Of a stretch of DNA of 64,000 nt, positions 4,708-62,880 are shown piece after piece. The notes under the pieces were generated by a model. That model was not told the DNA's origin. It saw only the letters and a list, made by a program, of their open reading frames with translations, and made no database searches. The stretch comes from an uncultured bacterium. GTDB taxonomy: Bacteria > Patescibacteriota > Minisyncoccia > Phycocordibacterales > UBA11359. The stretch spans positions 85,037 to 149,036 of the forward strand of contig CAIKZC010000001.1 in assembly GCA_903831815.1 (NCBI GenBank). Reading direction: 5' to 3'. The stretch's first letter is position 1. Every line of letters begins with the position of its first letter. A program made the translations under genes and the position numbers.

Positions 4708-5033
4708 GCCCCCGACAAACCATAGGTTTGTCGGGGGCGCTCTGTGTCACTGTCTCAACGGATCGGCCCAGTCACGAACGATACCGCCGTAACCAGACTC
4801 ATCTTGTTCATCTTCATCTGGCCCGGACAACACCCGGGCTTCATGCTGATGAGCTCGAGACTCGTCGGAGGCATCCATCACCTGATCGGACGGATTTTGA
4901 TTTTCCGGTCCCATAGTCATGACTCCATTCTTTGACAAGACCTCTGGCAGAGCTGCCGGGAACATCCCGTAAACAGCTGACTTATCTGGCTACTATTATA
5001 CACCCCCTTGGACTATTTGTCAAGCGTCAAAAA
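4708..5033 (-). ncRNA. Orphan transcription unit: consensus sigma70 promoter, about 260 nt of GC-rich RNA (contains a 72-aa acidic ORF 4747..4965 lacking an SD), and a terminator hairpin
   Basis: Minus-strand TTGACA (5023..5018), 17-nt spacer, TATAAT (5000..4995). Terminator GCCCCCGACAAACC-tat-GGTTTGTCGGGGGC at 4708-4738. The region is far more GC-rich than its surroundings. Confidence 0.4.
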
Positions 5034-5070: not shown

Positions 5071-5517
5071 ATGGCCATATTGTTGGAAAACAAAAAAGCC
5101 CATTTCAACTACGAGATTCTCGAGCGTTTTCAAGCTGGAATTGAAGTTGTGGGACATGAAGTGAAAGCTTTGCGCCATAATCTCGGCTCTCTTGAAGGGG
5201 CCTATATAACGATACGAGGCGGCGAGGCGTATATCATGAATATGTTAATTTCGCCATATCAGGTAAATAACACCGACCCTACCTACGAGCCCCGCCGCAA
5301 TCGCCGCCTCCTCCTCACCAAAAAAGAAATAAAAAAACTTGAAGAAACCGAGCACCAAGCAGGTTTGACAATAGTGCCTATTTCGGTGTATAATAATAAA
5401 CGGTGGATTAAGATGGAAATTGCGATTGTCCGAGGCAAGAAACAATTCGACAAACGCGAGGTCATCAAAAAGCGCGAAACAGATCGCGAAATCCGCCGCG
5501 AATTTAAAGATCGTTGA
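5071..5517 (+). CDS. smpB: SsrA-binding protein SmpB (start 5071 preferred; the longer ORF starts at 5008)
   Basis: MAILLENKKAHFNYEILERFQAGIEVVGHEVKALR... matches the SmpB N-terminus. It lies immediately upstream of the tmRNA. Confidence 0.85.
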   Translation: MAILLENKKAHFNYEILERFQAGIEVVGHEVKALRHNLGSLEGAYITIRGGEAYIMNMLISPYQVNNTDPTYEPRRNRRLLLTKKEIKKLEETEHQAGLTIVPISVYNNKRWIKMEIAIVRGKKQFDKREVIKKRETDREIRREFKDR

Positions 5518-5547: not shown

Positions 5548-5959
5548 GGGGATGATCGGCCTAGACAACTGATTCCCTTCTTGATGTGCGCTATAAGGGT
5601 CCTTGATACCTTCCAATCACCATGGAAATCTAAGTGCTAAAACCTTAGTTGCAAGCGCAAAGTCAACCTTATCTCCATATTTTGGAGCTAAAGACTTCGC
5701 GTTCGCCTACGTTTCTTAACCTAGGCGACGTCTCTCATCCTAATGTTTGGTCAGGATGAAGGGGTGTAATAAATCCAAACTGGAACTTGCGGTTTCTCGG
5801 CGCAAGTTTAAGAACAAGAGGATCGGCGGTGCATGATTTTGTTGGTTTAACCCATGCATTGCCTAAACGCCCACCTACCGGCGGGCACTAAAATCTTCTA
5901 CATAGCGTAGAAACATCAGAAGCATCTTTTGCACGGCGGTTCGATTCCGCCCATCTCCA
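5548..5959 (+). ncRNA. ssrA: Transfer-messenger RNA (tmRNA, ssrA)
   Basis: 5-prime GGGGATG pairs with 3-prime CATCTCC, including the G3-U alanine-identity pair. tRNA-like T arm GGCGG-TTCGATT-CCGCC, discriminator A, no CCA encoded. Length 412 nt, adjacent to smpB. Candidate tag frame ...AKDFAFAYVS ends at TAA 5717-5719 (tentative). Confidence 0.85.
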
Positions 5960-6139
5960 CAGACAAAATAAAAACTGCCCGCTAGGGTGGTTTTTATTTT
6001 GTCTGTAATTGATGATTGCCGGAATCGAAAGCCGGACCGAAGCTGCGATGTGAGCGAAGCGAACCGCAGCGAGGGAGGCGGGGTCGCGCAAAAATTGCGT
6101 AGCAATTTTATGTGTGACCGATGGAGCCTGCCTCCATCA
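5960..6139 (+). repeat. Element A copy 1: AT-rich 15-bp-stem hairpin (5960-6005) plus a 115-nt GC-rich conserved core (6021-6139)
   Basis: About 90% identical to 7345-7517. Several internal hairpins (GCTGCG...CGCAGC; CGCAA-aaa-TTGCG; GATGGAG-n5-CTCCATC). The core begins with GGAATCGAA, part of an inverted copy of the tmRNA T-loop/acceptor. Confidence 0.6.
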
Positions 6140-9676: not shown

Positions 9677-9871
9677 CTTGGATTCAACCCTCTCATGAAG
9701 CACAAGTTAGCCGCATGGTTCACCCAGCGGCTTCTTTTTTTGCCCAAAACCACACCACGAAATCACCGCTTGACAATATAAGTAGTATCTGATAGGATAT
9801 AGGAACAAAGAAGGGTTCGTGTCGAGACACATATTTGTATAATAGTTAAGTAAATAAAATCAAAAAACAAA

Positions 9872-10069
9872 ATGAAGGGAACAATCAAGAAGTTAACTCC
9901 AAAAGGTTTTGGTTTCATCTCCTCAGAAGGCATGGCGAAAGATCTTTTCTTTCACTCAAAGGGCCTTGTAGGCGTACAATTCGATGAATTGCGCGAAGGT
10001 GACGCTGTAACTTTTGATACCGAAGAGTCTCCAAAGGGACCTAACGCTGTCAACGTACAACGAGCATAA
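9872..10069 (+). CDS. cspA: Cold-shock protein, CspA family
   Basis: 65 aa. KGFGFI RNP1 motif. Promoter TTGACA(9770-9775)-17-TAGGAT with an 80-nt 5-prime UTR. Terminator AACTGCCGAGAGATCGGCAGTTTTTTT at 10081-10108. Confidence 0.9.
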   Translation: MKGTIKKLTPKGFGFISSEGMAKDLFFHSKGLVGVQFDELREGDAVTFDTEESPKGPNAVNVQRA

Positions 10070-12857: not shown

Positions 12858-12966
12858 GATCACCTCCCAATGTTCATTCTGCTTTATCCGGCAGTTACGG
12901 TTTTAGCACAAGCTAATCTGGGCAATATTATACACTTTATTGGTATTTATGTCAATGTATTTAAAA

Positions 12967-20845: not shown

Positions 20846-20955
20846 AAAAAAGCAAAAGGCACTTGCAGGGTGCCTTGCGCAGCGCGACTGGCGCGAGCAG
20901 AGCGGACGGCCAGCAGGCCGGAACGCGTGCATCCCCAAAGTGCCTTTTGCTTTTT
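20846..20955 (+). repeat. Element B copy 1: GC-rich about 75-nt conserved core closed by a 17-bp stem
   Basis: Closing stem AAAAAGCAAAAGGCACT...AGTGCCTTTTGCTTTTT. Core ttgcagggtgccttgcgcagcGCGCgactgGCGCgagcagagcggacGGCCagcaGGCCggaacgcgtgcatcc. Confidence 0.65.
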
Positions 20956-35700: not shown

Positions 35701-36315
35701 TCATGTTCTGACAACGGTGCCCAAAAATTCATCCAGCTCAGCTTGTTCTTCAGGACCGATTTTTGACCCCTCATCGATCATGAGCAACAAATTCCCCTCT
35801 TGGAACGCGATTCTCCTCTGCGGTTTCTGTTCGATAGAACCGATGAGAATGATCTTTACGTTCGGCACAGGCGCATCATAACGACGGCAATGAGAAAGAC
35901 AGAAAGTTGTCGAAAGTAGGATACCCCCAAGCTCCTCCAATTGAGGCTCTGCAAGTTGTACCCACCGGTTTTCGTCACGCTCTTGCTGTTCGGGTCTCGC
36001 GAATTCGAGCCTGACCACGTAACCAAAACCCATCCCACGATGCTTCTCGGGATAGACGTGCGCCAAAACAAAACCTGCCTGCTCCATCTCACGCAAGATC
36101 CCCGAAGCAGTGACCCGCCTCTGCATTCCCCATATCTGCTGAGGTGCAGGATAGAGGATGACCTTCTCCGATCGTGGAACCGGTATGCCGTTTACGATGG
36201 CATACTGAAAAGTCTTCAGGGCGCCAACTGTTTCTTCCCCGCCCATAAAATAGACGGAGACGGCGCCAATATCGGCCAAACTCACACCATTGAGACACAT
36301 CATGACTAACCTCAT
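35701..36315 (-). CDS. Hypothetical protein (204 aa) in a GC-rich patch
   Basis: Continuous ORF spanning a region with GC well above background. No confident motif. Confidence 0.4.
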   Translation of the reverse strand: MRLVMMCLNGVSLADIGAVSVYFMGGEETVGALKTFQYAIVNGIPVPRSEKVILYPAPQQIWGMQRRVTASGILREMEQAGFVLAHVYPEKHRGMGFGYVVRLEFARPEQQERDENRWVQLAEPQLEELGGILLSTTFCLSHCRRYDAPVPNVKIILIGSIEQKPQRRIAFQEGNLLLMIDEGSKIGPEEQAELDEFLGTVVRT

Positions 36316-36390
36316 ATGAAAAGACCTTAATTAGAACTCTTTCGAGAAATTATCACTAAATATCAAATTCGTCAAACGGAAACACAAAAC

Positions 36391-37038
36391 CTATTCATGA
36401 AATCCAATTTTTTCTTTTTTCGGTTCTTCCGGTTCCTCCAGTACCGGTTTCTTCAGCCGTTCTAATGATTCCACGGATTCCGCCAGTTTCTCTATAACAC
36501 CAAACACGATTTGAAAATTTTCGCCATATTTTTTCTCCAAATCATCCAGGCGATGAGCGAGTTCGCTATTCAGAGACAAAATCTGGCGCAATTTCACAAA
36601 AGTTTTAATGATGGCAATGCTCATGGCCACTGCCCGCGGGCTATTAAGCACCGTAGCGGCCATAAGCGCACCGTGTTCGGTAAAGGCGTAGGGTAAGAAA
36701 CGACGTTTGCTAAAATTTGCGGTTCCAAATTGGAACCGCAAATTTTGACCCTTTTTCAAGGTCGCAATTTGCGACCTTGAAACCTGATCTTCGTTCAAGG
36801 TTCCAATTTGGAACCTTGAACGAAGATACTCTGCTTCACTTTTTGTAAGCTGAAACATAAATTCTGCAGGAAAACGATCAATATTACGTTGTACCGCCTT
36901 ATTTAAATTCTTTGTCTTTACTCCATACAAACTCGCCAAATCACTGTCCAAAATCACCTTTTGATTACGAATAATTAAAATTATCTGCTCCACCCTCTCC
37001 TCCGGCGCAAGACCCACGCCATTGATATTTTTGTTCAT
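36391..37038 (-). CDS. ORF6N-domain (KilA-N-like) protein, paralog 1, with an in-frame roughly 120-nt palindromic expansion
   Basis: ...IRNQKVILDSDLASLYGVKTKNLNKAVQRNIDRFPAEFMFQLT...RFLPYAFTEHGALMAA... is the ORF6N signature. It carries an extra segment QIGTLNEDQVSRSQIATLKKGQNLRFQFGTANFSK relative to paralog 2 (55468-55974). Confidence 0.75.
   Translation of the reverse strand: MNKNINGVGLAPEERVEQIILIIRNQKVILDSDLASLYGVKTKNLNKAVQRNIDRFPAEFMFQLTKSEAEYLRSRFQIGTLNEDQVSRSQIATLKKGQNLRFQFGTANFSKRRFLPYAFTEHGALMAATVLNSPRAVAMSIAIIKTFVKLRQILSLNSELAHRLDDLEKKYGENFQIVFGVIEKLAESVESLERLKKPVLEEPEEPKKEKIGFHE
36710..36827. repeat. Three consecutive long palindromes (35, 29 and 41 nt) inside the ORF6N paralog-1 CDS
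   Basis: aaaatttgcGGTTCCaaattGGAACCgcaaatttt; tttcaaGGTCGCAAtttGCGACCttgaaa; atcttcgttcaaGGTTCCAAtttGGAACCttgaacgaagat. Confidence 0.8.
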
Positions 37039-37085
37039 GCCAAAAGCCTAACAAATGGAGATAAAATATTAATAAAATCCAGCTA

Positions 37086-37384
37086 TTGACAAAATCTTGG
37101 CTTATGCTAAGATACAAGAGGAAAATTTCAGAAAGTCTCTTGGCACTAACTGACCCGTTCTTGGAACTGATCATTCTAAAGGGCGCACTCAGAAGGCCGG
37201 TGATAGTCATGCACCTTAGCTGAAACTCTTCGTGAGATTCGAGGTTTCAGTGACAAAAGAGCGGAATCCTCACTAAGGGAAGCGTATGCACATGTCGCGA
37301 CCCCTGATTTTTTTAAAAATGTGCCGGTCATTGGACCGAGAACGAACAAACCCCTCAGCTACGCTTGATGAGGGGTATTTTCTT
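37086..37384 (+). ncRNA. Candidate small RNA: orphan promoter (TTGACA-16-TAAGAT) to an intrinsic terminator, with no ORF
   Basis: -35 at 37086-37091 and -10 at 37108-37113. Terminator CCCCTCAgctacgcttgaTGAGGGGtattttctt at 37351-37384. No ORF over 30 aa on this strand. Convergent with the downstream gene. Confidence 0.4.
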
Positions 37385-37405
37385 GGCCAAAAAACTAAAA
37401 ACTAC

Positions 37406-38029
37406 TTAAACACTGAGTATTTCAAACCTCTCACCCTCGACAAAAACGGCTTGGTCGTCGTTTAGGAAAATGAGCGGAGTTTTGTTTTCCGCGAGGTGCT
37501 CCATAACTTTCTTATTATCCGCTACAATATCGGGATTATTGGTATGCGGCAAGATCATGAAGTTGACCAATCCCAAAGCTCTATAATCGGATATCAAGTT
37601 GAGGTATTCCGTTTCCCCACCATCGTACTGCGCCAAGGTCACATCTTTTGCCGCTATCATGGAACCCGCGCTCGTGCCGGTGTATATAATTTCACCCTTC
37701 CGCACAGCGTCAACCACCACCCCTGCGAGACCGCTCTTCTGCAACACCGACAAAAGAAGCAACACACTGCCCCCGCAAAAATGAATAACCTCTGACCTCC
37801 CCAAAAGCTCCCTCATCTCCTCTTTTGTCGTCTTCCTCAAATCAACATCAACAATTTCACAACCCAAAGACGTAAACGCTTCCCTGTCGCTCCGCACCCA
37901 CCACGGCTCTTCAACCTCATCCGCCGCGTTCCTAATAAACATCACCTGGCAGCCCTTCCCCACCTTCGGTGCTTTCATCGCGAGAATCGAAATCGTATTT
38001 TGCAAACTTGAGGCGAGGAAGAGGGTCAT
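37406..38029 (-). CDS. Peptidase S51 family (dipeptidase E-like)
   Basis: GTSAGS nucleophile motif; IHFCGG; 207 aa. Confidence 0.7.
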   Translation of the reverse strand: MTLFLASSLQNTISILAMKAPKVGKGCQVMFIRNAADEVEEPWWVRSDREAFTSLGCEIVDVDLRKTTKEEMRELLGRSEVIHFCGGSVLLLLSVLQKSGLAGVVVDAVRKGEIIYTGTSAGSMIAAKDVTLAQYDGGETEYLNLISDYRALGLVNFMILPHTNNPDIVADNKKVMEHLAENKTPLIFLNDDQAVFVEGERFEILSV

Positions 38030-38034
38030 GGTTA

Positions 38035-38574
38035 TTATTTTATACCTCCAAAATTATACTTCCATCCCGGCTGCCATTTGAAGTGAGTCGATGTTAATTG
38101 CTCAAGCGTTACACCATTGATTAAATTTTCCAAACCAAACTGTGTTGCTCTATGACCGATTATCATAACTCGCTTGCCATCATAATTTTTAAACAAGTCT
38201 TCTAAAAAAGATTTCATTCGTACAGTTGTTTGAGTATAACTTTCACCATTAGGAAAAGGCGTTGAAATTCTTTGTGGTTTTTCCTTATCAACAATCTCGC
38301 TGGGTTTTTGAGTAAAATCACCATAGTTACATTCTCGTAACCGAGCGTCTTTTACAATCGGCCATTTATTACCAAAACCAATTTCTGCACTATTGTATGC
38401 ACGTTGAAGATCAGAGCAAAAGATTGCATCAAAATGATCATTTTTATATCGCTCTCCCATTTCTTTTGATTGTTGAATACCTAAAGGAGACAAAGCCACG
38501 TCATTGTGTCCGGACGCTAAATGAGCTTCGTTATCAAATGTAGTTCCGTGTGCTTCAAATATTATTTCAATCAT
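38035..38574 (-). CDS. Histidine phosphatase family protein (phosphoglycerate-mutase-like)
   Basis: N-terminal EAHGTT catalytic His motif, a variant of RHG; 179 aa. Confidence 0.65.
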   Translation of the reverse strand: MIEIIFEAHGTTFDNEAHLASGHNDVALSPLGIQQSKEMGERYKNDHFDAIFCSDLQRAYNSAEIGFGNKWPIVKDARLRECNYGDFTQKPSEIVDKEKPQRISTPFPNGESYTQTTVRMKSFLEDLFKNYDGKRVMIIGHRATQFGLENLINGVTLEQLTSTHFKWQPGWKYNFGGIK

Positions 38575-43780: not shown

Positions 43781-43864
43781 GTGTTTTAAATTATTTTAAC
43801 TCTACTACTTTTACAGTGAACTACAAGTATCTAATGGGATATGATTTTGATTTTACACAAGCGC

Positions 43865-43966
43865 GAAAGACCGTGCCTTGCAGGGTGCCTCGCACAGGCC
43901 GACTGGGCCGAGCGGAGCGGACGGCCAGCAGGCCGGAACGCGTGCATCCCTAAAGGCATGGTCTGT
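43865..43966 (+). repeat. Element B copy 2
   Basis: Closing stem AGACCGTGCC...GGCATGGTCT. The core has GGCCgactgGGCC where copy 1 has GCGCgactgGCGC, a compensatory change. Followed by the terminator AAAAAACCACCtttcGGTGG at 43986-44012. Confidence 0.65.
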
Positions 43967-44011
43967 AGCGCTTTTGTGACAACAAAAAACCACCTTTCGG
44001 TGGCTCTTTGT

Positions 44012-44863
44012 TTACTTCCCACTCTTTGCCTTCCCCACTCTCCTTCTCGTCACAATCAAATGATTTGAATATCTCTTTGCTCGTCGTGACTTCTGTCCCT
44101 TGCCCGTTGGCTTGCCGTAAACAGACTTTGCGCGTCGAGTTCCTCGTCCCTGTCGTCCTTCACCTCCTCCGTATGGATGGTCAACTGGGTTTTGAGCAGT
44201 ACCTCGAACGGTTGGGCGAATACCTAACCATCGACTTCGTCCTGCTTTACCAATATTGATCAATCGGTTTTCCTCGTTGGAAACAACACCGATAGTTGCG
44301 AAACAGGTATCGATAACTCGTCGTACTTCAGTTGAAGGCAACTTTAGGTGCACATATCCGGCATCGTGAGCAATAACTTCAACGAAGTTACCGGCAGACT
44401 TTGCAAGTCGTGCGCCACCATTAGCATTTACTTCAACGTTGTAAACGAAAGTACCGACTGGAATGTTCTTGAGCATCATTGAATTTCCAACTTTGATCTC
44501 GGCTTTTGGCGAAACAATGAACTCACTGCCAACTTTCATACCTTGTGGAAGTACAACGTATCGTTTCTCGCCATCTTTGTATTGAGCGAGAGCGATGAAG
44601 GCTGTACGGTTTGGATCGTATTCAACAGTCATGAGAGTGGCAGGAATATCTCGTTTGTTATATGTAAAATCAACTTCTCGATAGAGTCGTTTGTGTCCTG
44701 ATCCCTTATGACGTGTGGTGATAATACCTCGGTTGTTGCGTCCTACAGCACGTTTGAAGCCATGAGTAAGTGATTTCTCAGGGTCGTTCGTAGTCACGAT
44801 CTTGTTAAATTCGATCGTGGTCATCGCTCGTCGAGGGATACTGGTTGGTTTATATGATTTCAT
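44012..44863 (-). CDS. rplB: 50S ribosomal protein L2
   Basis: ...GRNNRGIITTRHKGSGHKRLYR... Confidence 0.9.
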   Translation of the reverse strand: MKSYKPTSIPRRAMTTIEFNKIVTTNDPEKSLTHGFKRAVGRNNRGIITTRHKGSGHKRLYREVDFTYNKRDIPATLMTVEYDPNRTAFIALAQYKDGEKRYVVLPQGMKVGSEFIVSPKAEIKVGNSMMLKNIPVGTFVYNVEVNANGGARLAKSAGNFVEVIAHDAGYVHLKLPSTEVRRVIDTCFATIGVVSNEENRLINIGKAGRSRWLGIRPTVRGTAQNPVDHPYGGGEGRQGRGTRRAKSVYGKPTGKGQKSRRAKRYSNHLIVTRRRVGKAKSGK

Positions 44864-55467: not shown

Positions 55468-55974
55468 TTACCCATGAAAACCAATTCTCGGTTTTTCCTT
55501 CTCTTTTGGTTGAATTGGAGGTTCCATAAGTTGTTTTATAGCTCGAAAAACAACTTGAAAATGTTGATCGTATTTTTTCTCCAACTCATCCAATCGACGA
55601 ACCAAGTCTTTGTTAACAGAAAGAATTTGGCGCAATTTTATAAAAGTCCTTACTATTGCCACACTCATAACAATAGCTTGTGGACTGTTTAATACGTTAG
55701 CCGCCATCAATGCACCATGCTCAGTAAATGCATATGGCAAGTAACGACGCCCGCCATAACTTGAGGTCACAAATTGTGACCTCAAGTTTTGCACTTCTTC
55801 CAAACTCAACTGAAACATAAAATCTTCAGGAAAACGATCAGGATTCCTTTTAACTGCCTGATTTAAAACCTTTGTCTCCACACCATACAAATTTGCCAAA
55901 TCCCTGTCCAAAATCACCTTTTGATTACGAATAATTAAAATTGCCTGTTCTACCCTCTCCAGTTTTTTATTCAT
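55468..55974 (-). CDS. ORF6N-domain (KilA-N-like) protein, paralog 2
   Basis: ...IRNQKVILDRDLANLYGVETKVLNQAVKRNPDRFPEDFMFQLS...LRSQFVTSSYGGRRYLPYAFTEHGALMAANVL. The LRSQFVTSS motif is encoded by the 27-nt perfect palindrome CTTGAGGTCACAAATTGTGACCTCAAG (55769-55795). Confidence 0.8.
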   Translation of the reverse strand: MNKKLERVEQAILIIRNQKVILDRDLANLYGVETKVLNQAVKRNPDRFPEDFMFQLSLEEVQNLRSQFVTSSYGGRRYLPYAFTEHGALMAANVLNSPQAIVMSVAIVRTFIKLRQILSVNKDLVRRLDELEKKYDQHFQVVFRAIKQLMEPPIQPKEKEKPRIGFHG

Positions 55975-56048
55975 CCCAAAACCGTAGCATTTTGGAGATA
56001 AAATATTTATAAAATCTATTTGATATTTTTTATATTTTATTTAATGCG

Positions 56049-56149
56049 GAAGACTATGCCTTGAAGGGTGCCTTGCGCAGCGCGACTGGCGCGAGCGGAG
56101 CGGACGGCCAGTAGGCCGGAACGCGTGCATCCCAAAAGACATAGTCTGC
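56049..56149 (+). repeat. Element B copy 3
   Basis: Closing stem AGACTATGCC...GACATAGTCT. Core near-identical to copy 1, with GGCCagtaGGCC. Followed by terminator AAAAAACCACCgagcGGTGGTTTTTT at 56165-56200. A TTGATA-17-AATGCG promoter-like sequence sits upstream at about 56009-56040. Confidence 0.65.
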
Positions 56150-56221
56150 AGCATTTACATACAAAACAAAAAACCACCGAGCGGTGGTTTTTTGTTTTGT
56201 ATTTATGTTTTTGCTTTCAGA

Positions 56222-59631: not shown

Positions 59632-60486
59632 TCAACGTTTCCATACCATACCGTCACTTTTGAAAATTATTGTGCCAAGGTTGAATGTAATGAGCGGAAT
59701 AATATTTAGTTTTTTAAAAAGATCCAGAGTTTCTTGATGAGGGTGACCGTATTTATTATTTAACCCGGCAGAGATGACGGCGCATTTTGGGGTGACGGTG
59801 GAGATAAAAGATTCGGAGGCGGAGGTGCGCGAACCATGATGCCCGGCTTTTAAAATATCGCTTTTGGTTCGCGCACCATCGAGTAAAGTCACGTATTCCT
59901 CGGTTGCGCTTGGTGCATCGCCGGTAAACATGACTGTGCTACTACCGTAAACAAGCTGTCCGATAATAGAACTGGTATTAGTTTCAAGTTTTGCCACATC
60001 TCGATCAGGAAAAAGCACATCAAAATGTGCTCCCCCGCCAATTTCAATTGATTGTCCGCGCCGAGCGATTACTTTTTTGATATTTTTTTGCTTAATCAGA
60101 TCTTCCAAAACTTTGTAACTCGGCGAACCGCCATTTGTACCCGGCTCAATTATCAAACCAACATCATATCTTTTTAAGAGATCGATGAAACCACCATAAT
60201 GGTCAACATCAGGACTACTTATCATTAACACATCAATGTAACGGTCGTACCAGGGCATAAGTTTTGCTATTTCCGATAAAATTGCGGCATTTGGCCCACC
60301 GTCAATGATCATTTGATGATGAGTTGGCGATTCTATGAAAATACTGTCACCTTGTCCGACGTTAAGAAAAGCTGTGGTCAATATATTTGTAGGAATTTGC
60401 CGGTAAACAGCCTGCCAGACTGTTATCGAAGCGAGCAGCAAAATACCGAGAATAAGTAGCCGATAATATATTTTGAAATGAAACAT
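59632..60486 (-). CDS. ComEC/Rec2-type MBL-fold domain protein (competence DNA-internalisation nuclease domain), TM-anchored
   Basis: N-terminal TM helix; VGQGDSIFI...DGG; SSPDVDHYGG; KAGHHGSRTS, as in the ComEC C-terminal beta-lactamase-like domain. Confidence 0.7.
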   Translation of the reverse strand: MFHFKIYYRLLILGILLLASITVWQAVYRQIPTNILTTAFLNVGQGDSIFIESPTHHQMIIDGGPNAAILSEIAKLMPWYDRYIDVLMISSPDVDHYGGFIDLLKRYDVGLIIEPGTNGGSPSYKVLEDLIKQKNIKKVIARRGQSIEIGGGAHFDVLFPDRDVAKLETNTSSIIGQLVYGSSTVMFTGDAPSATEEYVTLLDGARTKSDILKAGHHGSRTSASESFISTVTPKCAVISAGLNNKYGHPHQETLDLFKKLNIIPLITFNLGTIIFKSDGMVWKR

Positions 60487-60601
60487 TCGATCATCCTATC
60501 AGAGCGAGATAAAATAAAAATAAAATCTTTTTGTCATAAAATGATTTTAAATACGGCTAAGAAAAAGCTTTAAAATTTATTAATTTAAAAAAACAACAAA
60601 C

Positions 60602-61192
60602 ATGTACCCAACTCAAACATTTAATCTTCCGGAACTAAAAGGCATTTCAAAGCGCACGGTCGAAGAACATCTGAAACTTTTCGCCAGCTATGTAAAATTT
60701 ACGAACATTATTATGGATGTTTTGAAGCAGCACTCAAATAACAACGACACGGATTTATATATTCTGACCGAACTTAAGCGTCGATTTAGTTTTGAATGGA
60801 ACGGAATGCGCAATCACGAATATTATTTCAAAAGTCTGGAATACGGCGCAAAAACACTTGCTCCAGATAGCGCCTTGCGACAAAAAATTGAAGATCAATA
60901 CGGAAGTGTTGAGGCATGGCTCACGGCATCCACTTCACTCGCTCAAACACGCGGAGTCGGTTGGGCGATGGTGTACTACGATCCGCACACTGGCCGATTA
61001 ACCCTTGCATGGGTCGATGAACACCACAATGGACAATTGGGAAGTTTGCCGTTAGTACTTGCGTTAGATATGTGGGAGCACGCATTCCTTATCGACTATT
61101 CGCCCGCAGAAAAGAAAAAATATATTACCGCTTTTTTTGGAAATTTGAATTGGAATGTGATAGAAAAAAATTATCTAACCGCTCGAGGTTAA
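60602..61192 (+). CDS. sod: Fe/Mn superoxide dismutase
   Basis: DMWEHAFLIDY signature; N-terminal helical and C-terminal alpha/beta domains; 196 aa. Confidence 0.85.
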   Translation: MYPTQTFNLPELKGISKRTVEEHLKLFASYVKFTNIIMDVLKQHSNNNDTDLYILTELKRRFSFEWNGMRNHEYYFKSLEYGAKTLAPDSALRQKIEDQYGSVEAWLTASTSLAQTRGVGWAMVYYDPHTGRLTLAWVDEHHNGQLGSLPLVLALDMWEHAFLIDYSPAEKKKYITAFFGNLNWNVIEKNYLTARG

Positions 61193-62756
61193 CCAAGGTC
61201 AAAGGACTATCTGTTGACCGTGAATTTTTCGATTGAAATTTCTGCAGTCTCCACAACCAAAATCCGAGAACAATATATATGACTGCGACGCCCCACTCAG
61301 GAATTTGGAATTGTAAAACACCAAAAGGAATATTGGAAAAAAAGTTCGCGACAAGCAAAATATATTCGAGCATCAAATTTGAAATGACGACAAGCGGTAA
61401 CGCAAGCAGACTGTGAACATATCCGACCAGAGTGGCGGCAAAACCAAAACTCATAACCACAGGTAAAGTTGGCAAAATCAGTAAATTGGTAACCACTGTT
61501 ACTAAAGAAATCTGGCCCGAAGTCGAAAGCAAAATCGGCAAAAGATATAACTCGATTATAAAAGTGCTCAGCATTATTTCGCGAATTTTAAAGGTCTCCG
61601 GTAAAAATTTTAAATGCGAACCATATTTCAAAACAACCGAAGGAGCCGAAAATATTACCGCAAAAGTTGCGATACAAGAAAGTTGAAATGAAACATCAAA
61701 CACCACCATCGGATTCCAAAGTGCCATGAAAAGAACTGTCATAAATAATGCGCGACCAACGTGGTAAGTGCGATATATAAGTGCGGCAAAAATTACCAAA
61801 AGCGCCATAATTCCGGCGCGCACGACGGTTGCACTGAAACCTGTCATGATCACAAAAGCTAATATTCCCACGGCGCCAATTATAAGACGAAGTTTTTTCG
61901 GTAAAAAAATTAAAAGTGTCATCAGACCTTGTGCAATAATCGTGACATTAAAACCGGAAAGGGCGACGATGTGAATCAGTCCGGCTTGCGTGAACATTGC
62001 CTGCTCCACCTTTGAAAGAGACGATCGCCCACTGACAAGTAGGCCGGCTAAAAGTCCGCTTTTTGGCGCCACAAAAAGTTCGTCAATTTTGCGTAGAAAA
62101 TTATTTTTTATTTTTATTAAATACTCACGAAAAATATTTTCTTGATGATGAGACACGATACTGATGTTAGGAAAAACCATTATGTAGAATATTCCCTGTC
62201 GGGCAAGATACACATCATATGCGAAATTTCCTTCATCGCTTTTGATTGGTTTTGGTTTTACGATTTTGCCAAATAATTTTATTTCATCACCATACTCGAC
62301 CGTCGAATATCTATCGGCTGTTATCAACATTTTCGTCGGCGAAGTACCGCTGGCAATATTTGGAAGTGTTTTCACAATTATTTTTGATGAGCCATCGGAC
62401 ATTTGTGGCTCTTCAATTACGGTCGCCAAAATAGAAATCTTTTTATTTAAAGTCTGCTCAGGGACATTTGAATAGTTAAATGACATCCACAATCCCACAC
62501 GCCCTGCACCAAGAGCTATGCCAATTAAAAATATAATAAATATTTTTTCGTTTTGGACACTAAGACTGAAACTTTTATCGGTTTTTTTTAATAATTTTGT
62601 TTTTTGATAACGCAACACAAAAAAAGAAACAATTCCTAAATCTACAAACCCAAGACACACAATAACTGCCGAACACCAATCGTGTGCTATAGAGGAGGTG
62701 ATGCATGTTCCAATAAGCACGCCTCCGACGAGCGAGTATAATCGTGCATTTTGCAC
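61125..62756 (-). CDS. comEC: ComEC/Rec2 family competence protein, polytopic membrane channel part
   Basis: 543 aa with more than 10 TM helices. DUF4131-like N-terminal region and competence-domain hydrophobic core. 3-prime end overlaps the sod 3-prime end by 68 nt (convergent). Confidence 0.65.
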   Translation of the reverse strand: MQNARLYSLVGGVLIGTCITSSIAHDWCSAVIVCLGFVDLGIVSFFVLRYQKTKLLKKTDKSFSLSVQNEKIFIIFLIGIALGAGRVGLWMSFNYSNVPEQTLNKKISILATVIEEPQMSDGSSKIIVKTLPNIASGTSPTKMLITADRYSTVEYGDEIKLFGKIVKPKPIKSDEGNFAYDVYLARQGIFYIMVFPNISIVSHHQENIFREYLIKIKNNFLRKIDELFVAPKSGLLAGLLVSGRSSLSKVEQAMFTQAGLIHIVALSGFNVTIIAQGLMTLLIFLPKKLRLIIGAVGILAFVIMTGFSATVVRAGIMALLVIFAALIYRTYHVGRALFMTVLFMALWNPMVVFDVSFQLSCIATFAVIFSAPSVVLKYGSHLKFLPETFKIREIMLSTFIIELYLLPILLSTSGQISLVTVVTNLLILPTLPVVMSFGFAATLVGYVHSLLALPLVVISNLMLEYILLVANFFSNIPFGVLQFQIPEWGVAVIYIVLGFWLWRLQKFQSKNSRSTDSPLTLVNLERLDNFFLSHSNSNFQKKR

Positions 62757-62880
62757 TCTTACATGTTACACAATAGAGATAAAATATTTATAAAAAAGTT
62801 CTAAAGAAATTCTAAAATCCGTGAAACAAATTCTACGGCTACTAATATGACTGTTCTAAGCAGATCACAATTTTTCGTTG

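Follow-up and report, generated by a model that had tools for sequence, protein, structure and literature searches.

Does the DNA between the ORF6N gene and the S51-family peptidase gene of this Paceibacteria-type (Patescibacteria/CPR) bacterium hold a small-RNA gene of its own, and does such a gene belong with ORF6N? A preliminary description of the locus had seen here an orphan small-RNA unit, running from a promoter to a terminator with no reading frame between them, and had proposed that it may be paired with the ORF6N gene. We analysed the locus within its window, a 64,000-nucleotide stretch of contig CAIKZC010000001.1 (Table 1), in which the candidate unit is divergent from ORF6N and convergent with the S51 gene. 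By the names under which sources list the closest S51 homologs, the organism belongs to Patescibacteria/Paceibacteria. The first part of the proposal stands, in that a plus-strand promoter-to-terminator unit without an ORF is found in silico; the pairing with ORF6N is not supported. The reading that we prefer, and on which our own confidence is evenly divided, is that of a stand-alone, lineage-restricted plus-strand sRNA gene extending from ~37120 to ~37384.

Table 1. Positions of the features discussed, counted from the first letter of the window (L009 is the diverged relative introduced in the text)
Feature	Position	Strand	Remarks
ORF6N gene, paralog 1 (ORF6N-1)	36391-37038	-	flanks the candidate unit
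S51-family peptidase gene	37406-38029	-	flanks the candidate unit
Histidine phosphatase (His_Phos) gene	38035-38574	-	neighbour of the S51 gene
Sigma-70-type promoter	37086-37113	+	-35 TTGACA 37086-37091; -10 TAAGAT 37108-37113; 16-nt spacer
Promoter-like site for ORF6N-1	37065-37092	-	weaker; TTGTCA-16-AATATT; 9/12 in scan
Predicted non-coding transcript, ~265 nt	37120-37384	+	from promoter to terminator
RNA body	37275-37350	+	79% identical to L009
Conserved block 1, AAGGGAAGCGUAUGCACAUGUCGCGACCCCUGA	37275-37308	+	31/34 (91%) identical; predicted local stem GGG..GCG / CGC..CCC
Hypervariable linker, 18 nt	37309-37326	+	7/18 (39%) identical to L009
Conserved block 2	37325-37349	+	hairpin CGGUC-AUUG-GACCG, then single-stranded AGAACGAACAA
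Bidirectional intrinsic terminator	37350-37384	both	8-bp stem, 11-nt loop, U-rich tails either side
Spacer between terminator and S51 gene	37376-37405		70% identical to L009
Strict-class promoter	5365-5394	+	drives tmRNA gene (5548-5962)
Strict-class promoter	9770-9798	+	drives cold-shock protein gene (9872-10069), ~75-nt leader
Strict-class promoter	4995-5023	-	short unannotated ORF ~4920-4750, SD + terminator
Strict-class promoter	12927-12955	-	short unannotated ORF ~12856-12510, SD + terminator
Strict-class promoters	20810, 27732, 59608	-	three ordinary operons
24-nt motif GAGATAAAATATT(A/T)ATAAAAT	37056-37079, 55993-56016, 60495-60527, 62772-62795		directly 5' of four minus-strand genes
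ORF6N gene, paralog 2	55468-55974	-	
Element B, three copies	20862-20940, 43838-44013, 56020-56210		repeat

The TTGACA-16-TAAGAT promoter of the preliminary description is read directly from the DNA, with an extended -10 TG at 37105-37106 within the spacer, and a consensus scan scores it as a 10/12 match plus that TG; judged from the position of the promoter, the transcript would start at ~37120 on the plus strand. Loose promoter-like matches number nine in 3.5 kb of this DNA (42% GC), versus 6.9 expected. The strict class TTGACA-N16-18-TANNNT is found eight times in the window, compared with 2.15 ± 1.36 times in shuffled sequences (a ~4-fold excess; none of 100 shuffles contained eight or more sites), and the seven sites other than the one at 37086 each lie 5' of a genuine gene. 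In this genome, the strict class is thus real and productive. Because the class is over-represented and the other seven sites precede real genes, plus-strand transcription from ~37120 is likely. Within this productive class, only the 37086 site and the tmRNA promoter have no ORF behind them, and this is the best single argument for a plus-strand RNA. The tmRNA promoter itself lies inside the preceding ORF, ~150 nt 5' of the tmRNA gene, and the sites at 4995 (-), 12927 (-), 9770 (+), and 5365 (+) have the near-consensus form TTGACA...(G)TGTATAAT.

The preliminary description had also suggested looking for homologs in related genomes, a search that succeeded in part. Contigs that encode an identical S51 or ORF6N protein (L001-L006) are 100% identical across the region, and the sole diverged relative recovered is L009, a 1,144-nt contig (Ga0395910_100273 of JGI 3300037076) that ends inside the RNA; it covers 37275-37405, that is, the 3' 110 nt of the RNA, but neither the promoter nor the first 155 nt of the transcript. 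When all loci were searched with nhmmer and covariance models (CMs), the RNA was found only in the identical contigs and in L009. Three S51 homologs that were considered as syntenic relatives (P0002, P0003, and P0004; ~50% identity) turned out not to be syntenic, a synteny-based scan of genome contigs gave distant S51 genes only, neither DNA-pattern scans of viral contigs nor blastn against phage and plasmid sequences gave a match, and five metagenome DNA-pattern matches were chance hits in GC-rich contigs; the viral, phage, plasmid, and metagenome searches relied on exact patterns or were otherwise restricted. The S51 gene in L009 (positions 1-1016 of that contig) is cut to its C-terminal 113 codons and is a mosaic, with 98-100% identity to the window over 37580-37759 and ~85% thereafter, and 5' of it come two small genes, of 79 and 129 aa, that the window lacks.

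The 3' end of the unit was likewise borne out as the CCCCTCA...TGAGGGG hairpin with a T-run: ACCCCUCA (37350-37357) pairs with UGAGGGGU (37369-37376), AUUUUCUU follows, and the stem has a pair probability of 0.97 in the full-length ensemble. A terminator scan omitted this hairpin solely for its 8-nt loop limit. In L009, the stem changes from CCCCUCA/UGAGGGG to CCACUCA/UGAGUGG, a single compensatory replacement of C-G by A-U, and the U-run is better than in the window. The hairpin also follows the S51 stop codon (37406-37408), on the opposite strand, at a distance of 31 nt, and by its sequence and position it is the predicted end both of the candidate RNA on the plus strand and of the His_Phos-S51 operon on the minus strand. 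Because it would exist anyway as the operon's terminator, it is not independent proof of a plus-strand unit. It could indeed be nothing else: the hairpin would then be the His_Phos-S51 terminator, the ~230 nt before it decaying leftover DNA, perhaps from a rearrangement at the strain-variable junction described below, and the plus-strand promoter fortuitous or vestigial. We consider such a non-functional spacer or relic rather unlikely. The distance of 31 nt from the S51 stop codon and the U-rich tail on the minus strand are what it predicts, and chance alone would yield about two of the eight promoter matches. Against it stands the promoter itself, which is near-consensus, has an extended -10, and belongs to a class whose other members are all productive.

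What lies between promoter and terminator does not look like a protein gene or the remains of one. As the preliminary description had it, there is no reading frame: the ~230 nt contain multiple stops in all six frames, and a concatenated six-frame translation found no match at E ≤ 10 among 5.8 billion proteins. A recognizable pseudogene was rejected on this result, and the query turned up no spurious ORF calls from relatives either. This lack of any trace of a decayed protein gene counts against the relic reading, as does the GC content of the RNA body, 46%, compared with 23-36% in the short gene-free spacers of the window. An alternative genetic code, considered on account of four in-frame TGA codons in one frame, was dismissed, TGA being the terminal codon of 8 of 57 long ORFs. 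A decayed inverted copy of ORF6N, an idea prompted by 13/17 identities with the start region of ORF6N, was likewise discarded, with scores equal to those of shuffled sequences; in a tblastn search of the region with 122 ORF6N proteins, the best match reached 19.6 bits and shuffled controls 18-22.7 bits. Similarity and covariance-model searches of the window and the loci turned up neither another copy nor a repeat partner, and a DGR template, a dispersed element, or another repeat partner was set aside with no similar sequence found elsewhere in the window. Flanking 16-nt direct repeats that might have been insertion scars match at 13/16 positions, with one copy belonging to the conserved ORF6N leader, and are probably due to chance. 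Nor is this a CsrB-like RNA with GGA motifs: there are five GGA in 265 nt versus about four expected from composition.

A very small protein could still be encoded by a frame of 32-45 codons that ends at 37223, or by a minus-strand frame of 51-57 codons (37349-37176), with the rest of the transcript as UTR, an explanation that strikes us as very improbable indeed. Gene callers did call the 37086-37223 frame where it lies at contig ends (L004 and L005), a possible ATT start at 37125 is found behind AAGAGGAAA with AGAGGA preceding it, and elsewhere in the window strong promoters drive small ORFs. Against this, the TTG start of the 45-aa frame falls in the -35 box and hence 5' of the predicted transcription start, the SD-like AGAGGA is located at or before that start, no ATG, GTG, or TTG with an SD follows downstream, and no frame has a protein match. 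In addition to the 57-aa ORF on the minus strand, a 59-aa plus-strand ORF extends through the terminator into the S51 gene. Compared between the window and L009, both of these frames have mainly non-synonymous changes without third-position bias, and in L009 the plus-strand 3' frame shrinks from 57 to 25 codons; this comparison covers the 3' third only, the 45-aa frame being in the 5' part beyond L009. On these sequence comparisons, coding by the 57-aa and 59-aa frames is not supported. A conserved small ORF, the finding that the preliminary description had named as speaking against a small RNA, is not seen in the 3' third covered by L009.

The same alignment provides a measure of constraint, with the diverged tract of the S51 gene as reference (pS 0.335 and pN 0.128 between the window and L009). 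The RNA body (37275-37350) exceeds synonymous sites in conservation (p = 0.012), and for the two blocks within it, which are 91-92% identical (22/24, or 92%, for block 2 over 37327-37350), the same comparison gives p ~1e-5, the blocks having been picked post hoc from the alignment. Over the whole stretch 37275-37384, identity is 74%, which does not significantly exceed what synonymous sites predict (p = 0.06) and is in keeping with a relic; blocks of 91-92% identity next to a spacer of 70% and a synonymous divergence of 33% are harder for it to accommodate. Taken together, the 3' third of the candidate RNA appears to be under patchy constraint.

Whether this constraint reflects RNA structure is less clear from the folding data. 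When the window and L009 were folded jointly with RNAalifold, 24 of 24 predicted pairs were kept, three of them by double changes, namely, the C-G to A-U replacement in the terminator and two in the 4-bp mini-hairpin of the linker, which is retained as UUUU/AAAA turns into AUUC/GAGU. Such compensatory changes argue against a relic; in a covariation control, 65 of 500 shuffles did as well as the real pair of sequences, and we regard the covariation evidence from these two sequences as suggestive. The thermodynamic signals are weak: the 3' domain has MFE z-scores of -1.6 to -2.3 and an SCI of 0.66, similar on both strands, and weak structure statistics are one of the points in favor of a relic. 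The secondary-structure check proposed in the preliminary description therefore had a mixed outcome, with a strong terminator stem and all 24 pairs kept on the one hand and a full-length MFE z-score of only -1.6 on the other.

Structure also bears on the strand. If the conserved 3' blocks acted in a minus-strand RNA, they could be the 3' UTR or a read-through tail of the S51 operon, or else a long leader of ORF6N-1, both of which we hold to be very unlikely. The minus strand folds as well as the plus strand (-22.2 versus -21.9 kcal/mol), with similar z-scores and SCI, and a second terminator-like hairpin was flagged on it at 37339-37324. However, a minus-strand transcript would reach the first terminator before the conserved blocks, L009 does not preserve the U-run of the second hairpin, the ORF6N promoter-like site (37092-37065 in the minus-strand direction) leaves a leader of only ~25 nt, and the only strong promoter points in the plus direction. 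The plus strand is favored further because its G-U pairs become C-A mismatches on the minus strand and because its covariation term is larger (-2.0 versus -0.75).

For the preferred plus-strand RNA, two structure models remain, one with local hairpins in the 3' domain and the other with a rod of ~190 nt in which 37156-37164 would pair with the complementary 37336-37344 and the pairing would continue from there. A forced rod of nt 37-225 has an energy of -55.5 and a z-score of -2.8 (from 30 mononucleotide shuffles only), and the versions comprising nt 1-200 and 1-265 have z-scores of -0.7 and -1.7. The local-hairpin model accommodates the substitutions seen in L009, two of which would disrupt A-U pairing in the rod unless the 5' arm, a part of the RNA beyond L009, carries compensating changes. 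A 6S-like architecture is not claimed.

Does the RNA belong to a known family? No Rfam family matched the candidate when the whole window was scanned at gathering thresholds, and at E ≤ 10 on the 531 nt from 36950 to 37480 the only match was that of the terminator portion to the trpB motif, with 22.7 bits versus a gathering score of 59. A tRNA or tmRNA fragment was discounted, ARAGORN having found none at the region. That the unit is convergent with the peptidase gene and hence neither a leader nor a riboswitch, as the preliminary description had argued, agrees with our reading of the S51 gene on the minus strand: a riboswitch, T-box, or leader attenuator was rejected with the next downstream gene on the opposite strand and no aptamer or leader model matched. 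An antiterminator pairing of ACCCCUGA with UGAGGGGU was also considered and is not kept in L009.

The housekeeping RNAs deserve a closer look. Bacterial RNase P RNA (RF00010/RF00011) has a long-range P4 helix that is formed, after P1-P3, from the conserved GGAAAGUCC and ACAGAA-N-GGCUUA regions; SRP RNA has the domain IV (helix 8) motif with a GNAR tetraloop and conserved symmetric and asymmetric loops; and 6S RNA folds into a rod of ~180-200 nt with a 5'/3' closing stem and a large central bubble. A highly diverged 6S, RNase P, or SRP RNA that the Rfam models miss would account for a strong consensus promoter like that of tmRNA, which fits a stable RNA, for the possibility of a ~190-nt rod at nt 37-225 (z = -2.8 from 30 shuffles), and for a CR-I-like AGAAAGUC near the 5' end. 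Still, the 6S RNA that the preliminary description had singled out for an Rfam scan was not found: neither 6S (RF00013 and related models) nor RNase P (RF00010) nor SRP models matched within 36950-37480 even at E ≤ 10. The AGAAAGUC that resembles the RNase P CR-I motif is at nt 11-18 of the predicted RNA, too close to the 5' end for P1-P3 to fit before it, and reading reveals no 3' strand complementary to it for P4; for SRP RNA, the domain IV consensus is absent by reading as well. Furthermore, the rod would lose A-U pairs to the two L009 substitutions, and conservation of a housekeeping RNA should extend well past a single close relative, whereas the collections searched (by exact-pattern or restricted searches) gave no match. 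The Rfam negatives apply to scores above ~15 bits, and diverged CPR forms of RNase P RNA that fall below default thresholds have been reported, with sub-noise thresholds needed in 10 of 35 circular CPR genomes (Lui et al., 2021; PMC8172020). Weighing these points, we judge a diverged housekeeping RNA to be highly unlikely.

We now turn to the relation to ORF6N. The preliminary description held that both ORF6N genes may be paired with a divergently transcribed non-coding RNA, the role of which would be played at paralog 2 by element B copy 3 behind a similar divergent promoter. The paralog 1 and paralog 2 loci have sequence in common only up to the 24-nt motif, which stands in front of both ORF6N paralogs and of the genes at 59632-60486 and 61125-62756; judging from these positions, it is probably part of a promoter or leader shared by these genes. 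Past it, the two loci differ, with the RNA unit following at paralog 1 and element B at paralog 2. No plus-strand promoter was detected in front of copy 3 of element B, and two further copies of this element are dispersed in intergenic regions away from ORF6N. In four contexts of ORF6N homologs (L020, L021, L022, and the P0091 contig; 60-64% identity), ORF6N is directly upstream of rpsS, and a long divergent non-coding unit is absent, with the upstream neighbor 28-206 nt away. Insertion just upstream of rpsS, inside the ribosomal-protein gene cluster, recurs among the ORF6N homologs of related Patescibacteria, and in one such context the toxin-antitoxin genes PemK, RelB, and YafQ lie in between.

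The junction between ORF6N-1 and the RNA unit is itself variable. Contig L023 matches 36235-36980 at 99.7% identity, after which unrelated sequence takes the place of the RNA unit, and three independent assemblies (L003, L004, and L005) break at 37087, 37098, and 37140, by the RNA promoter. The unrelated 286 nt of L023 (positions 1-286) have an open frame on the other strand, and the contig comes from the same sample as L003. The junction is, as far as the assembled sequences indicate, a strain-level breakpoint, and structural variability of this kind among strains adds to the case for a relic. Because L023 joins ORF6N-1 to unrelated sequence, it uncouples ORF6N-1 from the RNA unit; with the four homolog contexts pointing the same way, the sequence comparison does not support an ORF6N-ncRNA pairing. 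The only specific relation to ORF6N would seem to be a physical one, the overlap of the predicted -35 boxes, which lie back-to-back on the same DNA (TTGACA at 37086-37091 on the plus strand and TTGTCA at 37092-37087 on the minus strand). The minus-strand site at 37065-37092 also includes the 24-nt motif.

Two other features should be noted. Element B has a nearly invariant, GC-rich core of ~80 nt, CTTGCAGGGTGCC...GCGTGCATCCC, with a closing stem that covaries (AGACTATG/CATAGTCT, AGACCGTG/CATGGTCT, and AAAGGCA/TGCCTTT) and an inner GCGC..GCGC that changes to GGCC..GGCC; long terminator hairpins follow two of the three copies, and Rfam gave terminator-type chance matches only. From its sequence, element B has the look of a structured RNA or a repeat present in several copies, and the structural evidence for it is better than that for the candidate at 37120-37384. 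Inside ORF6N-1, the minus strand of 36700-36830 carries ~130 nt of nested palindromes (e.g., TAAAATTTGCGGTTCCAAATTGGAACCGCAAATTTTG) in frame, a block that encodes extra copies of the peptide repeat (L)R(S/F)Q(I/F)xT, present in three to four copies in ORF6N-1, one in paralog 2, and two in several homologs.

For the sRNA gene that we prefer, the following course of events can be envisaged. RNA polymerase would start at ~37120 from the near-consensus extended -10 promoter, transcribe ~265 nt of non-coding sequence, and stop at the shared bidirectional terminator (37350-37384). The product would most likely be a trans-acting regulatory RNA, which may contact its targets via the conserved segments 5'-G(U/C)CGCGACCCCUGA-3' and 5'-AGAACGAA(C/U)AA-3', with a variable linker that tolerates change; a search for target complementarity within the 64-kb window gave nothing above chance. 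As the strong plus-strand promoter and the weak ORF6N-1 promoter share a -35 box, firing of one probably excludes the other, and any functional link to ORF6N would consist of this promoter overlap and not of a conserved partnership. Transcription, the transcript ends, the trans-acting mode, and the promoter interference are all things we infer.

At present, the locus offers a single candidate, restricted to its lineage, whose promoter is good, whose terminator is shared, and whose conservation is partial; it is not surprising, and it merits an annotation line. Its interest is modest and lies mainly in how little sRNAs of Patescibacteria have been explored: to our knowledge, in these organisms with genomes of ~0.5-1 Mb almost nothing is annotated beyond tRNA, rRNA, tmRNA, and RNase P RNA, and we know of no sRNA characterized in the host's Patescibacteria lineage. 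If verified, a stand-alone sRNA would mean that RNA-based regulation is kept in symbiotic, reduced bacteria, and it would provide a handle for finding targets. That the locus instead encodes an undescribed, Paceibacteria-specific structured RNA, be it a functional analogue of global regulators such as 6S RNA, none of which has been recognized in this lineage, or a promoter-interference switch built on the ORF6N -35 box, we find quite improbable; if true, such an RNA and the covarying element B would point to an unexplored ncRNA repertoire in reduced genomes.

Among known systems, 6S RNA resembles the candidate in being non-coding, in having a strong promoter, and in the imperfect rod that can be drawn for nt 37-225 (~190 nt). 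It differs in that the candidate has no covariance-model match and a branched unconstrained fold, and in that the candidate rod would need to be processed out of a 36-nt leader and the terminator tail. With back-to-back divergent promoters, the locus has in common that TTGACA (+) and TTGTCA (-) occupy the same DNA, although here mutual exclusion is only a prediction, the promoter on the ORF6N side matches the consensus weakly, and the junction is strain-variable. The hairpin at 37350-37384 corresponds to the bidirectional terminators found between convergent units, with a single hairpin, A/U-rich flanks on both sides, and stem pairing kept via compensatory change; nothing about it is unusual, and it is an ordinary part. 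The closest counterparts of the candidate as we read it are the trans-encoded sRNAs. At ~265 nt, it would be at the long end of this class, and its homolog comes from one close relative. The generic hallmarks of sRNAs, namely, an own promoter, a 3' intrinsic terminator (here shared with the convergent operon), and no conserved ORF, are all seen in silico, and we regard the candidate as a plausible bacterial intergenic sRNA, a known kind of RNA, that on sequence matches no known RNA family. Like the trans-encoded sRNAs, it has its own sigma-70-type promoter, no ORF, and a GC-rich hairpin with a U-run at its end, is set apart from its flanking genes, and has short conserved segments with variable linkers between them.
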